Assembly (NCBI GenBank): GCA_049287005.1 | Contig: JBAQEZ010000003.1 | Coordinates: 393,745 to 457,744, forward strand | Length of the DNA stretch: 64,000 bases | Direction: 5' to 3' | From: Candidatus Moraniibacteriota bacterium | Lineage (GTDB): Bacteria > Patescibacteriota > Minisyncoccia > Moranbacterales > UBA1568 | Notes under the pieces: generated by a model | Told to the model about the DNA's origin: nothing | What the model saw: only the letters and a program-made list of their open reading frames with translations | Database searches by the model: none | Shown here: positions 2,653 to 27,968 of the stretch, one piece after another | Layout: the number at the start of each line of letters is the position of its first letter | Position numbering within the stretch: position 1 is the stretch's first letter | Program-made: the position numbers and the translations under genes

Positions 2653-2765
2653 ATGTATTCTTTGAAGGGATCGGTCACAAATAAATTTCCTGACGGACAC
2701 TTTTCGCGATCCCCCTCGTGAATGAAACAGTTCGTTTGCTGAGCGGATCACTCACCGTGTTCGTG

Positions 2766-2839
2766 TGCGCTCGGAGGGGATCGAACCCCCGACCCTCTGG
2801 TTCGAAGCCAGATGCTCTAATCCACTGAGCTACGAGCGC
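2766..2839 (-). tRNA. tRNA-Arg (anticodon TCG)
   Basis: Cloverleaf folded by hand: acceptor GCGCTCG/CGAGCGC, anticodon loop CTTCGAA, T-loop TTCGATC. Confidence 0.85.
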
Positions 2840-2931
2840 GAATACAATACTCAACCTACTCTAAAAATCGCTCCACGTCAACAGCGGAATGGTGTATAAT
2901 AGGAGTACTTCTCATTTTTAATTTTTTTCAT

Positions 2932-3705
2932 ATGACAGAGGATCAAATGAAACAGATGAAGAGTGTAGCCATCGTTTTACTGGCGCTCTCAGCGGTCGTG
3001 TATGTCTATCAGTTCGGCCGCTCCGTCGATCAGACCTATCCAAACAAGACATTTACTGTCGATGGCGAGGCCAAGATGGAAACCGCCACCGATATCGCCA
3101 CGTTTACGGCCAGTGTCGTGACGGAGGGTGGGAAAAATGTAGCCGAGATCCAAAAGCAGAACGTGGAAAAGATGAATGCCATCAACGCTTTTTTGCAAGA
3201 ACAAGGGACAGAGAAGAAGGATCTGCAGACCAGCCAGTACACGCTCATCCCGCGTTACAGTTATGCCAACTGTAGCGGAGGAACTGTTTGTCCTCCGCCG
3301 GCTATTTCCGGCTATACGCTCACTCAGACCCTGACGGTCAAGGTACGCGACTTCGAATCGCTCGGTACTATTCTTTCCGGTATCGTGGAGAAGGGAGCGA
3401 ATACGGTTTCCGGCGTCAGTTTTACCGTAGATGATGATACGGACGCGAAACAGGCGGCGCGCACGGAGGCGATCGCGAAAGCAGAGAAGAAGGCAGAGGA
3501 GATTGCCAAGGCCGGGAACTTCCGTGTCGGGAAATTGATTTCCCTGTATGAAGACTCGGGTGTTCCTCAGGGAGATACTATCGGTTATGGTGGGATGGGA
3601 GGCGGTTCTGCAGCGGAAGTGAAAATGGCCGTACCGCCGGTAATCGAACCGGGAACGCAATCCGGTAAACTGCGAGTGAATCTGACGTACGAAATTTTGA
3701 ATTAA
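2932..3705 (+). CDS. SIMPL domain protein (DUF541, periplasmic immunogenic protein-like) with N-terminal TM anchor
   Basis: 257-aa ORF. The TQYTLIPRYSY...GYTLTQTLTVKV and C-terminal LTYEI motifs are characteristic of SIMPL. An extended -10 (TGTATAAT) lies upstream. Confidence 0.7.
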   Translation: MTEDQMKQMKSVAIVLLALSAVVYVYQFGRSVDQTYPNKTFTVDGEAKMETATDIATFTASVVTEGGKNVAEIQKQNVEKMNAINAFLQEQGTEKKDLQTSQYTLIPRYSYANCSGGTVCPPPAISGYTLTQTLTVKVRDFESLGTILSGIVEKGANTVSGVSFTVDDDTDAKQAARTEAIAKAEKKAEEIAKAGNFRVGKLISLYEDSGVPQGDTIGYGGMGGGSAAEVKMAVPPVIEPGTQSGKLRVNLTYEILN

Positions 3706-3782
3706 TCTTTCCCGGGATAAACGAAAAAACCTCCATACGTTGGAGGGTTTTTGTTGGGCAAAAATAAAAAAAGATCCACAGG

Positions 3783-3856
3783 GGTGACCACAGGGAATCG
3801 AACCCTGATTCATGGTACCACAAACCATTGTCCTACCATTGAACGATGGTCACCAC
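3783..3856 (-). tRNA. tRNA-His (anticodon GTG) with the extra 5' G(-1)
   Basis: Acceptor GGTGACC/GGTCACC with G-1, anticodon loop TTGTGGT. Confidence 0.85.
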
Positions 3857-3880
3857 TCTGGATCTTTTTTCGGTATTTGG

Positions 3881-3952
3881 TGCCCCGAGAGGGAATCGGA
3901 CCCCCATCAAGACCTTAGAAGAGTCCTGCTTTATCCATTAAGCTATCGGGGC
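3881..3952 (-). tRNA. tRNA-Arg (anticodon TCT)
   Basis: Acceptor GCCCCGA/TCGGGGC, anticodon loop CTTCTAA. The anticodon stem has two G-U pairs. Confidence 0.75.
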
Positions 3953-3977
3953 AAGGAACTCAAACATGCCGAGGATG

Positions 3978-4050
3978 TGGGCGCAGTAGGAATCGAACCT
4001 ACGACCGTTGGCTTAAGAGGCCACTGCTCTACCAACTGAGCTATGCGCCC
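3978..4050 (-). tRNA. tRNA-Lys (anticodon CTT)
   Basis: Acceptor GGGCGCA/TGCGCCC, anticodon loop CTCTTAA, T-loop TTCGATT. Confidence 0.8.
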
Positions 4051-6818: not shown

Positions 6819-9800
6819 CTAGAGAAGAGAAGAGAGGTGCTGTTCGAGATTGGCGAGCTGTTTTTTCGCCTCTGCCAATTTCAGTTGTTCCGCCGCGACG
6901 ATGTCCGGCTTAGCACGCTCGATGAAATTCCGGTTTCCGAGTTTCGTTGCGAGAGAGGCGATGTAGGTCGTTTTTTCCTGTTTTTCTTTTGCGAAGCGCG
7001 CGCGTTCTTTTGCGATGTCGACAATACCTTCCAGATGCAGGAATATCTGCAGGAGACCCGCTTGGATGAGGAGAGTGTTTTTGGGAACATCGTTCGCGAC
7101 GGTTCGTACCTCGCCTACGCGCGCGAGGCGTTTGAAAACTTCTTCGTTATCACGGATGGTTTTTTCTGATCCCCCTCGGACGCTGACGATCATTTTTTGG
7201 ACGGGTTCGATATGGTAAGCGGCTCGGGTATTGCGGATGGCAGTGATAAGATTTTTGACGAGTTCGAATCTGTTTTCGTCCGCGATTTCTTGCGGCGTTG
7301 CGGGGAATGCCGGCCAATGTGAAACCATGAGAAATTCGCTCTCATCGAAATGGAACGTCTGATGGATGGCTTCGGTAACGAATGGCATGAACGGATGCCA
7401 GAGCTTGAGAATCGTATCGAAAGCCAGACGGAGCAGAGCATCATTTTTCTCAATCTTGTGGATTTCGACGTACCAGTCGGCGAAATCTCCCCAGGTGAAA
7501 TCGCGGAGTTCTTCGGTTGCGAGCGAGAGTTCATACCGTTCGAGATGGCGCGTGGTATCCCTGACGATGGTATGCAATTTTTGCATCAGGTATCTATCGG
7601 CGTCTGATGTTTCCTCAGGTTCCGCATCCGTTTTTTCGGACATGGTGCCGACATAGCGAGCGAGGTTCCAGAGTTTATTCGTGAAATTGCGCATCGCGAT
7701 GATTTTCTCACCGGAGAGCTTGAGGTCGTTGCCGGGAGTGTTACTGGAAACAAGCGCCATGCGGAGCGCATCAGCCCCGTGCTGCTGGGAAACCGTCAGC
7801 GGATCGATGACATTACCCAGGCTTTTCGACATCTTGCGCCCCTGTTCGTCACGGACGAGACCGTGGAGATAGACCGTATCGAACGGGTGCATGCCGAGGA
7901 GATATTCTGTCATGAGAATCATCCGCGCTACCCAGAAGAATAGGATGTCGTAGCCGGTTTCGAGAAGATTAGTCGGATGATAGGTGGTGAAATCCTCCGT
8001 GCCAGTGTCCGGCCAGCCGAGCGTCGAGAACGTCCACAGTCCGGAAGAGAACCAGGTGTCGAGCGTGTCAGTATCCTGCTCGAAGAGATCGTTTCCGCAG
8101 CGTGGGCAGGGAGCGCCAAGAATATCCAGCGAAATAAGTTGGGCGTTTTTGATACCTGGGCGGGTGACGGCGTCTAGCGGATCAAGATTCTTGATGTGTT
8201 TTATCAGCATGCGAATAGCGCCGCCATGGCTCACGATGACCACGTTTTTATTCTGATGCAGATTGCGGTGTTTGGCGAAAGCCTCGCGGAGACGCTCTTC
8301 GATGGCGCGGTATGTTTCGATGTCATTCCCTTCCGTATCGTATGCTCTGGAGTGAGGGAATTTTGCTTGCGTTTCTTCATACGTGAGCCCTTCTGCTTCG
8401 CCATAGTGCCGTTCTCGAAAGGCGGCGTCAAATTCAACTGGAGCTCCGGTGATTTCTGCGATAATCTGAGCCGTTTCCTGGCAGCGGCCTAGGTCAGAAC
8501 TGATAATCAAGGCGATATGCTGATCGCGGAGTTTTTCAGCTGTCTCCCGTACTTGCTTTTTGCCCTTTTCTGTCAGGGGAGTATTGCTATTACCTTGGGT
8601 GACGCGTTTGACATTGCCCTCCGTCTCTCCGTGGCGGACGACGAACCATTTTGACTGCACCGCCGCATTTATCTGCTCGGACTGGCATGAGAGGCAATAC
8701 CACACCGGGATGCGGTGACCGAACCAGATCTGACGGCTGATGCACCAGTCGCGGAGATTATCGATCCAATGGAAATACGTTCTCGAGAAACGCTCAGGGA
8801 GGATGGTAATGCTCTTGAACGTGACTGCTTCCTGCATAAGCGTCTTGAGTGTCACCTTGCGGCCATCCCGGTTGAATTCCTTGTTAACTGCGACGAACCA
8901 TTGTTTTTTTATTTGCGGTTCGATGATACCCTCGCCACGACTGTTGATCGCAATGTTGTGAATGTAGTTTTCTTCAATTTTGACAAGAAGCCCTTTCTCT
9001 TCCAGTTTTTTTACCATTTTTTTTCGAGCTTCAGCAATCGGCATTCCAGCGAATTCCCGGGCAATAGGGAGGAGCTTGCCATTTTCGTCGATGATCTGTT
9101 CTTTGTCGAGATGGTGGCGTTCGGCAATTTCGAAGTCAGTGTGGTCATGCCATGGAGTGATAGTCATTACCCCGGTGCCGAATTCACGGTCGATAGCGGC
9201 ATCCTTGATAACGGTTGCGGTGATAGGCCCATTGATCCACTCCACATCGATTTTTTGTCCATCGGAATACTCTTTATAGCGTTCATCTTCTGGATGCATC
9301 ACGACGTATTTGTCCCCGAATTTTGTCTCAGGACGTGCGGTAGAAATAACAAATGGGCCGTACTGCATGTAGTAAAAAGGAATCTTTTCTTCTTTCCATT
9401 CAATCTCATCATCAGAAACAGTCGTCTGAAGATTGGGATCCCAGTTCACGATACGATTGCCACGATAGATGAGACCGTCAGCGTACATCTTGTGGAACGC
9501 CGTACGGACGGCCAGACTCCGTTTGCCATCGAGCGTATAGGCTTCGCGCGACCAGTCGAGCGATGATCCCATCTTCTTGCATTGGTTCACGATGGTGTCG
9601 TGACTGTCCTGCGCGAATCGCTCGACGCGCGTGAGAAATGCCTCGCGGCCGAGGTCGTGACGTGTCTTGCCTTCTTCTTGGAGAAGCATCTTTTCCACCT
9701 TACTCTGCGTCGCGATGGCGGCGTGGTCGGTACCGGGAATCCAGAGCGTTCGATCGCCCTTCATCCGATGATAGCGGACAATCGCATCTTCGATGGCGAG

Positions 9801-10007
9801 CATGGCAGCATGGCCGGCATGGAGCGTGCCAGTGACGTTGGGCGGAGGAAGGACGATGGAAAATGGAGGTGCGCTCTTTTTCGTGATGCCTTTCTTGATG
9901 CAGGTGTCGGGGTTGAAAAAACCGCTCTCTTCCCAGAGGGCATAGAGCCTGTCTTCCCATTCCGGGGCATTATATGTTTTGGGAATTGCTTCGTTCATAT
10001 TCTCCAC
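6819..10007 (-). CDS. valS: valine--tRNA ligase carrying an in-frame histidine-phosphatase (PGM-like) domain insertion
   Basis: HIGH (HAGH), KMSKS, the CP1 editing domain and the DWCISRQ motif are present. About 180 aa with RHGE...SHGGAIR is inserted between the two CxxC pairs. Confidence 0.9.
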   Translation of the reverse strand: MENMNEAIPKTYNAPEWEDRLYALWEESGFFNPDTCIKKGITKKSAPPFSIVLPPPNVTGTLHAGHAAMLAIEDAIVRYHRMKGDRTLWIPGTDHAAIATQSKVEKMLLQEEGKTRHDLGREAFLTRVERFAQDSHDTIVNQCKKMGSSLDWSREAYTLDGKRSLAVRTAFHKMYADGLIYRGNRIVNWDPNLQTTVSDDEIEWKEEKIPFYYMQYGPFVISTARPETKFGDKYVVMHPEDERYKEYSDGQKIDVEWINGPITATVIKDAAIDREFGTGVMTITPWHDHTDFEIAERHHLDKEQIIDENGKLLPIAREFAGMPIAEARKKMVKKLEEKGLLVKIEENYIHNIAINSRGEGIIEPQIKKQWFVAVNKEFNRDGRKVTLKTLMQEAVTFKSITILPERFSRTYFHWIDNLRDWCISRQIWFGHRIPVWYCLSCQSEQINAAVQSKWFVVRHGETEGNVKRVTQGNSNTPLTEKGKKQVRETAEKLRDQHIALIISSDLGRCQETAQIIAEITGAPVEFDAAFRERHYGEAEGLTYEETQAKFPHSRAYDTEGNDIETYRAIEERLREAFAKHRNLHQNKNVVIVSHGGAIRMLIKHIKNLDPLDAVTRPGIKNAQLISLDILGAPCPRCGNDLFEQDTDTLDTWFSSGLWTFSTLGWPDTGTEDFTTYHPTNLLETGYDILFFWVARMILMTEYLLGMHPFDTVYLHGLVRDEQGRKMSKSLGNVIDPLTVSQQHGADALRMALVSSNTPGNDLKLSGEKIIAMRNFTNKLWNLARYVGTMSEKTDAEPEETSDADRYLMQKLHTIVRDTTRHLERYELSLATEELRDFTWGDFADWYVEIHKIEKNDALLRLAFDTILKLWHPFMPFVTEAIHQTFHFDESEFLMVSHWPAFPATPQEIADENRFELVKNLITAIRNTRAAYHIEPVQKMIVSVRGGSEKTIRDNEEVFKRLARVGEVRTVANDVPKNTLLIQAGLLQIFLHLEGIVDIAKERARFAKEKQEKTTYIASLATKLGNRNFIERAKPDIVAAEQLKLAEAKKQLANLEQHLSSLL

Positions 10008-13104: not shown

Positions 13105-13176
13105 GGCCCCATCGTCTATCGGTTAGGACACCAGGTTTTCATCCTGGGAAGAGGGGTTCGACTCCCCTTGGGGCTA
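13105..13176 (+). tRNA. tRNA-Glu (anticodon TTC)
   Basis: Acceptor GGCCCCA/TGGGGCT (G1-U72), anticodon loop TTTTCAT, T-loop TTCGACT. Confidence 0.8.
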
Positions 13177-13299
13177 CAAGTACCAATAAAAACACCCTCC
13201 GAAAGGAGTGGTGTTTTTTGTTGACAAACATTTGCAAGTTTCGCATACTATGAAAGCTATTCCACATGGGTAGCACATTTTTTCTGATAAGGAGAAGTG

Positions 13300-21089: not shown

Positions 21090-21499
21090 CAAAGAAGTGT
21101 GTAAAAATGAAACGTCCCACCCGAAATGTTTCTCGGGGAGGGACGTAGGCGACTTCAGTCTTCTTGGTCGACGTAGAGCCTTCAACAGGAAGGAGCATCC
21201 ATATATTGCGCGCGATATTTCCGTGGATGTTCCGTTCTGCCGCGCAGAGTACGTCGATATATCCCCGTACATCAGAAGGAGGGACAGAAAACCTAGCTTT
21301 CTCAAGCTTCCCAATTTTTTAGGAGGAGGGATGGCAGATCGCCTCTACTGCCACATAAACGGCTCTGCGTGAAAAACATCAAAAACTGAACTGGTATTAT
21401 TTTTATCAGAGAATGGGGGAAATGTCAATAAGATTCGCTTTCTTCCGGCGTCCGATTCCCGACGCGCGCCAAGCAGTCGGCTCACTCGCTTCGTTCATG

Positions 21500-21571
21500 T
21501 GTCCTCGCGTGGAATCGAACCACGATCTTCTCCTTCGGAGGGAGATGTCCTATCCATTGAACTACGAGGAC
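21500..21571 (-). tRNA. tRNA-Arg (anticodon CCG)
   Basis: Acceptor GTCCTCG/CGAGGAC, anticodon loop CTCCGAA, T-loop TTCGATT. Confidence 0.8.
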
Positions 21572-21929
21572 GTAACTTTCTTATACTAGCAACAAAAGCG
21601 TTTTTAGCAAAAAAGAATCCCGGAAAGATTCTTTTTTATTATCAGTGCGCTTGGCCCTCCTCCGCTCAAGCTTCGGACGGGCAAGCAGGAATCTCCCTCG
21701 ACTAAACCTTTGTCGACACAAAGGTTTGTCTGGGCACCGTAATAGTAGTGATGTGCCTGGCAGGCAGGAATCTGTCACAAGTAAATTTCCTGACGGAAAT
21801 TTCTCGCGACCCCGTCTCGCGGCACTCGCCTTGCCCTTTCGGGCAAACTCGTGCAACGCTCCGACTTTCGATTCCTGACGCACGCCAAGCAGTTGGCGTG
21901 CTCCAAGACAATTTCGCTTTGCTCAATTG

Positions 21930-22002
21930 TGCGCTTGGCAGGAATCGAACCTGCGACCCTCTGGACCGCAACCAGATGCTCTATCCACTGAGCTACAAGC
22001 GC
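21930..22002 (-). tRNA. tRNA-Arg (anticodon GCG; not the usual ACG)
   Basis: Acceptor GCGCTTG/CAAGCGC, perfect anticodon stem TCTGG/CCAGA, loop TTGCGGT. Confidence 0.75.
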
Positions 22003-22047
22003 AAAAACAAAATATGCTTTCCGTATGGATGCGGAAGGAAAGCACTA

Positions 22048-22569
22048 CTAAATATGCAGGAGTTTCTCCAATGTGTCAACTAATCCGGGCTGATGCTTCT
22101 CTTCGGGAATGAATTCATCGAGCGTATCGCGTAAGACATCGATATTGACGCCCATAGCAGGGATATGGACATAGGGGACAAGTTTGCCTTCGGTGCGGAT
22201 GCTTAGGATGTTTTCGAATGGAGGTTCTGTGTAAATGAAGAAAGATTCGAGGGTATCAAATGCGTAGAACTCGTTGCCGGCGATGATGCCTTTGGCCGTC
22301 ACCATGAAGGTAAGGACACGTGGTTCATGATAGAGCGAAAGATAGCCGACGACGCCGATCAAAATAAAAGTAATAGCCATCAGCGGGCTATTGGTATAGA
22401 GAGCATAGGCGATGATAGCGATCAGAAGAAGGGTGACAACAATAGTAGAGCGTGGCCCGAGTTCGAGCGGTTCATGCTCAGGAGCCTGCCAATAGAGAAG
22501 AACCTCACCGTAAGCGGAGGGGATGTTGTGTGGCTGTGGACTGAGTTCAGAAGAAAAATCTTGTTGCAT
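22048..22569 (-). CDS. hypothetical membrane protein (2 TM)
   Basis: ORF with hydrophobic helices (VVTLLLIAIIAYALY, ITFILIGVVGYLSLY). Confidence 0.4.
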   Translation of the reverse strand: MQQDFSSELSPQPHNIPSAYGEVLLYWQAPEHEPLELGPRSTIVVTLLLIAIIAYALYTNSPLMAITFILIGVVGYLSLYHEPRVLTFMVTAKGIIAGNEFYAFDTLESFFIYTEPPFENILSIRTEGKLVPYVHIPAMGVNIDVLRDTLDEFIPEEKHQPGLVDTLEKLLHI

Positions 22570-22706
22570 ATCGTGGAAACATTTATCTTTGTTTACTATA
22601 GCATATTTTTTCAAAAAAGGAGGTCCTTTTGCCCTCATAAAGAGTCTGTACAAAGTTCGCGTGGCTTGCTAGGATGAGATGGCAATAAATACGAATTTAC
22701 GATTAC

Positions 22707-22793
22707 GGAGAGATGGCCGAGCGGTTGAAGGCAACAGTCTTGAAAACTGTCGTACCCGAAAGGGTATCGTGAGTTCGAATCTCACTCTCTCCG
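22707..22793 (+). tRNA. tRNA-Ser (anticodon TGA), long variable arm
   Basis: Acceptor GGAGAGA/TCTCTCC, anticodon loop CTTGAAA, variable arm CGTACCCGAAAGGGTATC. Confidence 0.85.
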
Positions 22794-22852
22794 CAAATGA
22801 GTTTCAATGCGGTTATGAAGAAGAGAATGAATTTCAGCTTGAGGAAAATGTA

Positions 22853-27731: not shown

Positions 27732-27818
27732 GGAGAGGTGGCCGAGCGGCTTAAGGCACCACACTGCTAACGTGGCGGGGGATAAAACCCCTCGAGAGTT
27801 CGAATCTCTCCCTCTCCG
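27732..27818 (+). tRNA. tRNA-Ser (anticodon GCT), long variable arm
   Basis: Acceptor GGAGAGG/CCTCTCC, anticodon loop CTGCTAA, variable arm CGGGGGATAAAACCCCTC. Confidence 0.85.
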
Positions 27819-27968
27819 CAGTGAACAAAGTGAACGTAGGAGAGGAGGAAGCCAACTGCTTGGCTTCCGAGAGAGATGAGAAAGGCGGAGTGATGTTTCG
27901 CGAGTACGCGAAACCGCGAGCCAGGGTCGTGGAAATTGTCGAGCGACGGCGAGGCAATTATCCCTGAC

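Follow-up and report, generated by a model that had tools for sequence, protein, structure and literature searches.

The stretch of DNA considered here (the window) comprises 64,000 nucleotides from a Candidatus Moraniibacteriota bacterium (contig JBAQEZ010000003.1, positions 393,745 to 457,744), and contains on its minus strand a valS gene whose product, a valine-tRNA ligase (ValRS), carries a histidine phosphatase domain (His_Phos) nested inside it. The gene neighborhood in the window reads TsaD - GATase - valS - PrsW-like - HSP20 - VanW, and the parts of valS are listed in Table 1. The longest open reading frame (ORF) starts from a GTG at 10007, and the deposited NCBI protein from an ATG at 9998 (1059 aa). 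A 100% identical protein (P0121, MFZ2187576.1) is encoded on a 767-kb contig of a Candidatus Moraniibacteriota bacterium metagenome-assembled genome (MAG), where its NCBI title is "class I tRNA ligase family protein." An initial annotation of the locus had proposed that a complete phosphatase domain is inserted in frame at 8112-8654 (residues 452-632) of an otherwise intact ValRS, and all of the motifs that it quoted (HAGH, the CxxC pairs, VVRHGETEGN at 456-465, SHGGAIR at 593-599, and KMSKS) lie where it had put them.

Table 1. Parts of the valS gene and of its nested cassette, in window coordinates.
Feature	Coordinates	Strand	Remarks
valS, valine-tRNA ligase with nested phosphatase module	6819..10007	minus	Unbroken single ORF, 1062 aa from GTG
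ValRS N-terminal part, residues 1-437	8697..10007	minus	Rossmann first half with HAGH, CP1, CP2, WCISRQ...RIPVWY
Swappable cassette CxxC - His_Phos - CxxC-GNDLF, residues 438-642	8082..8696	minus	From junction comparisons; fills the CP3 loop
First cysteine pair, C438-L-S-C441	8685..8696	minus	Invariant in alignment A3
His_Phos_1 domain, residues 455-629	8121..8645	minus	PF00300; catalytic R458, H459 (nucleophile), N465, R508, E532, H594
Second cysteine pair, C634-P-R-C637	8097..8108	minus	Invariant in alignment A3
ValRS C-terminal part, residues 643-1062	6819..8081	minus	EQDTDTLDTWFSSGLW amino-acid-pocket strand, Rossmann second half, KMSKS, anticodon-binding domain, coiled coil

A phosphatase cassette in the CP3 loop of ValRS

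The host protein is recognized as a ValRS by two NCBIfam equivalog models, NF004349 (942 bits, cutoff 704) and TIGR00422 (876 bits, cutoff 612). Its Pfam tRNA-synt_1 match (E=4e-129) is divided in two around His_Phos_1 within a single unbroken ORF, which makes the module a true in-frame domain insertion, as had been proposed, and not a neighboring gene. The class I signatures HAGH (residues 63-66; 9810-9821) and KMSKS (725-729; 7821-7835) are present, as are the DWCISRQ (420-426) and TLDTWFSSG (648-656) motifs and the CP1 editing motifs TARPET (at 223) and GTGVMTITPWHD (at 277). Pfam also recognizes the anticodon-binding domain (PF08264 Anticodon_1, residues 804-938) and the C-terminal arm or coiled coil (PF10458, residues 997-1061). 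An AlphaFold2 (AF2) model of the protein (pLDDT 88.5, pTM 0.79) has the Thermus thermophilus ValRS (1GAX) as its closest match in the Protein Data Bank (PDB), with a target-normalized TM score of 0.81. With the equivalogs above cutoff, the motifs and domains in place and the fold matched, the ValRS is otherwise as intact as the initial annotation had held. The valS loci of relatives, insert-bearing and insert-free alike, have the same gene neighborhood as the window, which identifies the window gene as the orthologous housekeeping valS; no second valS and no further His_Phos was found in the 64-kb window. The gene is accordingly annotated here, also on its hidden Markov model (HMM) scores and motifs, as the predicted housekeeping valine-tRNA ligase of the organism, its charging of tRNA-Val being backed indirectly by the orthologous locus and by the lack of another valS in the window.

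According to the junction comparisons, the cassette replaces a 17-aa linker (RGEETYCGIEAPEGDDW) of module-free alleles. The insertion site, between WCISRQ...RIPVWY and EQDTDTLDTWFSSGLW, is the CP3 zinc-finger loop of class Ia synthetases. CP3 is a cysteine-rich zinc-finger insertion module of this class (PMC10810186; a definition is also given in PMC7191050), and the CP1 editing domain of these enzymes is itself nested inside the other finger, ZF (PMC10810186). The initial annotation had called the site the zinc knuckle of ValRS. This is correct with respect to the location, which is that of the CP3 zinc finger, but in this lineage the phosphatase and the four cysteines form one cassette and move together. 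Native short CP3 knuckles do occur at the same position in the valS product of locus L006 (ICGTCGEGIADLDNSITACTKCGG) and in P0266 and P0267. In the module-free Moranbacteria ValRS nearest to that of the window, with cores of 79-83% identity, there is no knuckle but an 18-aa linker free of cysteines, "WYR..EAPEGDGWEQD." The window ValRS has eight cysteines in total and none at the ZF positions (residues 188-195, NWDPNLQT, and 356-365, NSRGEGIIEPQ), where the first zinc-finger cysteines have been lost. The Cys-free linker of the nearest module-free ValRS, together with the lack of any other cysteine cluster in the window protein, assigns the four cysteines to the cassette, and these are the sole candidate zinc site of the window ValRS. 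C438, C441, C634, and C637 probably close the base of the cassette as a predicted zinc staple.

The GC content of the module (0.518) is that of the core (0.517). In the AF2 model the module has a pLDDT of 90-97 and the stalk on which it stands (around residues 431-450 and 621-640) one of 86-93. The module would be a structurally autonomous accessory that stands outside the aminoacylation machinery. Other insertions were seen in related proteins. P0210, a close Moranbacteria ValRS, has at the CP3 site a different insert of 164 residues, which lacks CxxC pairs and any Pfam match; this suggests that CP3 is a general insertion hot spot in these ValRS. P0129, whose core is among the nearest to that of the window ValRS, has an insert of ~125 residues after LGWP, in the loop preceding the second half of the Rossmann fold, with a weak similarity to ASCH/DUF3850 (PUA-like) domains that falls under the Pfam cutoffs. 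In a Liptonbacteria genome (RIFCSPLOWO2_01_FULL_53_13; L018, ~3143-3504), ~120 extra residues between the N-terminal part of ValRS and the module may represent another insert.

The Pfam profile search that the initial annotation had called for gives a PF00300 match to the module with an E-value of 3.5e-48 (164 bits, cutoff 21.7), spanning profile positions 2-181 of 194. The domain is therefore nearly full length, and with H459 and H594 both catalytic histidines are present, in agreement with the claim of a complete phosphatase. Across 116 module copies, which differ down to ~25% identity, the catalytic positions are conserved as follows: R458 in 97%, H459 in 100%, N465 in 97%, R508 in 99%, E532 in 91%, and H594 in 97%. 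Retention of this set despite such divergence argues for selection for catalysis; it indicates strong purifying selection, and the module is predicted to be catalytically competent.

The nearest solved structures to the module are those of PhoE (1EBB/1H2E, E ~1e-18), followed by GpgP, CobC, and PspA. CobC (TIGR03162) is the best-scoring named NCBIfam subfamily, and at 111.4 bits, under the cutoff of 162.9, the module is a non-member. GpmB (96 bits, cutoff 261) and PspA (70 bits, cutoff 350) also remain below their cutoffs. A dPGM identity was ruled out, as TIGR01258 reaches 54.9 bits (cutoff 81.7) on residues 455-553 only, and the other dPGM equivalogs are far below theirs. The HGNS motif, which defines the mutases, is not found in the module, whose second-His motif reads SHGGAIR. 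By these profile and motif matches, the module is a predicted member of the PhoE/CobC-like phosphatase branch, a phosphatase rather than a mutase. The term "phosphoglycerate-mutase-like" in the initial annotation thus fits the histidine phosphatase superfamily but not the branch. Because the module scores under every named-subfamily cutoff, its substrate is not transferable by homology. Against the defence profiles of PADLOC-DB, the module gave one insignificant match (E=0.0055) and its free-standing forms gave none; a scan of viral contigs for a phage link returned only distant, generic His_Phos genes, at most 38% identical and lacking CxxC flanks. The better matches to the module also include free-standing proteins of ~410 aa with two tandem His_Phos domains (P0273, P0299, P0324, P0325, P0333, P0336, and P0371).

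Recurrence and exchange of the cassette

The architecture is not confined to the window. A survey of valS orthologs, as suggested at the outset, found the same insertion in 37 of the 120 closest ValRS, which come from Moranbacteria, Kaiserbacteria, and Colwellbacteria. Module-bearing proteins also make up at least 40 ValRS-like cluster representatives at 50% identity (within the best 150 of an exhaustive search) and occur in at least 13 GTDB species representatives. The searches for relatives were seeded with the ValRS flanks, which biases them toward class Ia hosts. Public records name the module-bearing proteins "class I tRNA ligase family protein," "hypothetical protein," or "valine--tRNA ligase."

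The position and number of the modules vary, as mapped by local domain assignment, Pfam, NCBIfam, and inspection of the junctions. Two tandem modules occupy CP3 in P0251, where CP3 has no cysteines, and P0247 contains four His_Phos stretches. Modules are found at the ZF/CP2 junction in P0247, P0250, P0252, and P0267 (the last with its native CP3 knuckle intact), and after LGWP in P0014, P0266, and P0281. One or two His_Phos domains are likewise present in isoleucyl-tRNA synthetases (IleRS, above the TIGR00392 cutoff) of related bacteria (P0278, P0284, P0337, P0380, P0383, P0312, and P0277; loci L059, L072, and L077). The IleRS modules sit in CP3, and P0278 has one in the anticodon-binding region as well.

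The cassette unit also exists as a free-standing protein (P0269, P0384, P0276, and P0348). In two genomes, a CxxC-His_Phos-CxxC gene lies between TsaD and valS, directly upstream of valS (L005 8001-8708 and L006 8001-8735, encoding P0269 and P0384). Both of these genes retain the catalytic motifs, and their ends correspond to the ValRS-derived flank "PC..CG.DLYEDP." The L005 valS has an internal module too, whereas the L006 valS product, of 724 aa, has only the native short CP3 knuckle and no C-terminal coiled coil. The two free-standing copies share 54% identity, and in L005 the free-standing copy and the internal module share 48%; such low identities point to an old, maintained gene. The free-standing copies are less likely to be the source of the insert than the reverse, given their ValRS-derived ends and their position next to valS, although they are old. 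In one related contig from ENA with the same synteny (L001, 4181-6900), the module-bearing valS appears as three consecutive gene calls (307, 213, and 384 aa), probably owing to frameshift errors or because it is a pseudogene.

In a tree built from the ValRS core only, module-bearing and module-free proteins are interleaved. One case is the pair P0133 (module-bearing; L002 8001-11201) and P0163 (module-free; L004 2396-5029), in whose valS genes a 567-bp difference is flanked on either side by DNA of 97-99% identity. The genes flanking them (TsaD, HSP20, VanW, and DoxX) are only 61-81% identical as proteins. Near-identical valS genes amid such diverged neighbors indicate a recent horizontal exchange of valS between diverged Moranbacteria. 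At the position of the difference, P0163 encodes the short linker and P0133 the cassette, and the flanks are identical, including 33 nt on the right. A simple insertion or deletion between the two alleles was rejected, since the short allele has its own conserved 17-aa linker; the event is a cassette replacement.

Exchange is also seen within the module. P0125 and P0132 have cores that are ~100% identical, whereas their modules are 57% identical overall and range from 26 to 73% along their length. A second patch of the same pair, at ~786-808 in window numbering and just before the anticodon-binding domain, is only 46% identical. The window protein is 73% identical to P0125 in the module and 68% in the core, and relative to P0123 the values are 41% in the module and 80% in the core. 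From these comparisons, modules thus appear to move by homologous recombination, independently of the core and without compensating changes in it. A module that is dispensable in near-identical alleles, interchangeable without co-adaptation of the core, and tolerated at several loops or as a separate gene is best described as an accessory, autonomous one.

Elsewhere in the window there are nine tRNA genes (2765-4050, 13105-13177, 21499-22794, and 27732-27819), including a tight His-Arg-Lys tRNA cluster at 3781-4050, directly downstream of the VanW gene. None of the nine is a tRNA-Val gene.

Function of the nested module

The reading favored here, at a probability of roughly 0.55, is that of a bifunctional protein, in which a ValRS is joined to a phosphatase that acts on a substrate of its own, with no mechanical coupling to the sites of synthesis or editing. 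The architecture, its recurrence, the retained catalytic residues, and the cassette behavior are direct observations, from which enzymatic activity, zinc binding, independence of aminoacylation, and the substrate class are inferred. The synthetase would serve as a constitutively expressed carrier, or as a loose tether to the translation apparatus, and the substrate would most likely be a diffusible, perhaps nucleotide-like, phosphomonoester. Following the established mechanism of the superfamily, H459 would take the phosphoryl group from the phosphomonoester while R458, R508, N465, and H594 hold the phosphate and E532 acts as the proton donor; water would then release phosphate from phospho-H459. 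Homologous recombination through the conserved flanks RIPVWY and EQDPDTLDTWF would exchange the cassette, and the module could in this way be gained, lost, or replaced with the ValRS core unchanged, and could also work as a separate gene beside valS. That the module is placed so variably in other synthetases speaks against its being tightly coupled, in a mechanical sense, to the active site. Other observations weigh against an independent phosphatase. Among the matches listed in the GTDB scan, all relatives of the module that are more than 40% identical lie inside valS. Every host found is a class Ia enzyme, a restriction that may reflect some functional link with this class, for which a pure carrier model would have no explanation. 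Finally, the cassette junction lies only ~10 residues before the DTW652FSSGLW strand, which we take to be homologous to the strand that lines the amino-acid pocket in MetRS.

In other readings, the module would serve the synthetase. A phosphatase coupled to translation would act on a substrate presented by the synthetase, such as a 2'- or 3'-phosphate or pyrophosphate at the CCA end of tRNA (healing or de-blocking before charging), or AMP, Ap4A, or an alarmone at the active site. The repeated choice of class Ia hosts (ValRS and IleRS) through independent insertions and the conserved valS-adjacent free-standing copy would fit such a role, as would the top-scoring named subfamily, since CobC is a phosphatase for a nucleotide-like substrate and the IleRS modules reach the CobC cutoff. 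A patchy distribution with fast turnover, as seen here, is also typical of accessory stress or conflict functions. On the other hand, placement in three ValRS loops and in the anticodon-binding region of one IleRS is hard to square with a fixed site such as A76. The module is about neutral in net charge (median -2) with no obvious RNA-binding surface, and the synthetase-borne modules have no active-site signature of their own, their conserved positions being equal to those of generic free-standing His_Phos proteins. To our knowledge, no member of the histidine phosphatase family acts on tRNA ends. Translation coupling is thus regarded as possible, though unlikely. A broader and still more doubtful version is that CxxC-His_Phos-CxxC is a recombination-mobilized cassette that spreads among the valS and ileS genes of Patescibacteria and is kept because its phosphatase protects or repairs the charging system, for instance by clearing tRNA CCA ends, or the synthetase itself, of phosphates that block them in a toxin or phage conflict.

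Alternatively, the module could be a regulatory device, a role that the initial annotation had raised, one that binds, and perhaps slowly turns over, a phospho-metabolite and signals through the CP3 stalk to the amino-acid-pocket strand, tuning ValRS. The short distance between the cassette and that strand and the confidently modeled stalk are what one would expect of such a sensor, but lineages have exchanged module interiors without any compensatory response of the core, neither the other insertion sites nor the free-standing form suits an allosteric relay, and binding alone would not need the full catalytic set, including the proton donor, that is kept. We consider this improbable, and take much the same view of a guard that strips inhibitory phosphates placed on the synthetase (e.g., on the KMSKS loop) by HipA/HipT-like or other kinases. 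Kinase toxins are known to target class I synthetases, the superfamily includes the protein phosphatases SixA, PGAM5, and Sts-1, and the accessory, fast-turnover distribution is compatible with a conflict role; however, neither SixA-type nor other protein-phosphatase subfamilies are among the best matches, no defence-system profile was matched, and no kinase gene adjoins valS in the loci examined. The patchy presence of the module among close relatives and the broken valS of contig L001 might raise the suspicion that the insertion is artefactual or has no function, be it as an assembly chimera, a decaying insertion, or a spliced-out element. This explanation is highly improbable and effectively already refuted by the identical protein P0121 on its long contig, by the recurrence of the architecture, which dozens of independent assemblies and no fewer than 13 GTDB species share, by an in-frame gene whose module matches the core in composition, and by purifying selection on the catalytic residues. 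An assembly chimera or a frameshifted neighboring gene, in particular, is ruled out by the single ORF, the recurrence, and the matching composition. Protein splicing was likewise rejected, as there is no HINT or intein match in Pfam, and the cassette is followed by E643 and not preceded at that junction by a His-Asn pair.

Comparison with known systems

Aminoacyl-tRNA synthetases are among the most conserved proteins, and extra catalytic domains in those of bacteria are rare and usually telling with regard to quality control, resistance, or signaling. Here, an essential synthetase contains a whole second enzyme within its catalytic domain, and does so in the candidate phyla radiation (CPR), a large group of bacteria that is still poorly understood. 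Independent insertions have placed this enzyme at several loops and in two synthetases, it has been duplicated up to fourfold, and it is all that distinguishes some near-identical valS genes. A phosphatase that acts on tRNA, nucleotides, or the synthetase would add a new level at which tRNA charging is controlled or repaired in minimal-genome organisms; were conflict protection the true role, the protein would be an "armed" aminoacyl-tRNA synthetase, a type that would itself be new. Should the module be an unrelated enzyme of metabolism, the protein would be a natural example of how multifunctional proteins are built by nested insertion and cassette recombination. In either case, the predicted zinc-stapled hairpin suggests a design rule from nature, that of a docking port. 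There is also a practical consequence, in that the insertion makes annotation pipelines downgrade essential genes to "class I tRNA ligase family protein" or "hypothetical protein."

Like the bacterial ValRS of known structure (1GAX), the window protein has all of the defining motifs and domains, HMM scores above cutoff, and a superposable predicted fold, but it holds an enzyme domain of ~190 residues in CP3 and is without the cysteines of the first zinc finger (ZF). The inserted domain and the lost ZF cysteines account for its bare name in the NCBI pipeline. With PhoE of Geobacillus stearothermophilus (1EBB/1H2E), CobC, GpgP, and PspA, all of branch 1, the module shares the fold family and the catalytic RHG/Arg/Glu/His residues; it differs from them in being nested in another enzyme, in its two CxxC flanks, and in scoring below all named-subfamily cutoffs. 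A bifunctional RNase H/acid phosphatase (NF005567, PRK07238; Rv2228c type) provides a precedent for a CobC-like histidine phosphatase fused to a nucleic-acid enzyme, although its fusion is terminal and its partner a different one, and the module scores 96 bits against this model, under the cutoff of 326.

Synthetases with accreted accessory domains are already known. For instance, an IleRS with an N-acetyltransferase (NF040702, ileS_w_GNAT) is a curated class Ia synthetase with an extra enzyme domain, which is a different one from the His_Phos module. No curated family for a ValRS or IleRS with His_Phos was among the NCBIfam matches, and a full-text literature search, with subscription journals mostly outside its coverage, found no paper describing an aminoacyl-tRNA synthetase with a histidine phosphatase domain. 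The His_Phos architecture thus appears to be undescribed, as the initial annotation had supposed. Its closest structural parallel is the CP1 editing domain within the ZF finger (PMC10810186), which is likewise a globular hydrolytic domain nested in a cysteine-rich zinc finger that protrudes from the catalytic domain of a class Ia synthetase. In contrast to the editing domain, the cassette sits in CP3 and not in ZF, has another fold, is a predicted phosphomonoesterase and not an aminoacyl-ester hydrolase, and is accessory and swappable where the editing domain is universal. What sets the present system apart is therefore the combination of a hydrolase nested in a zinc finger in the manner of an editing domain, its recurrence across two synthetases, and its rapid exchange as a cassette.

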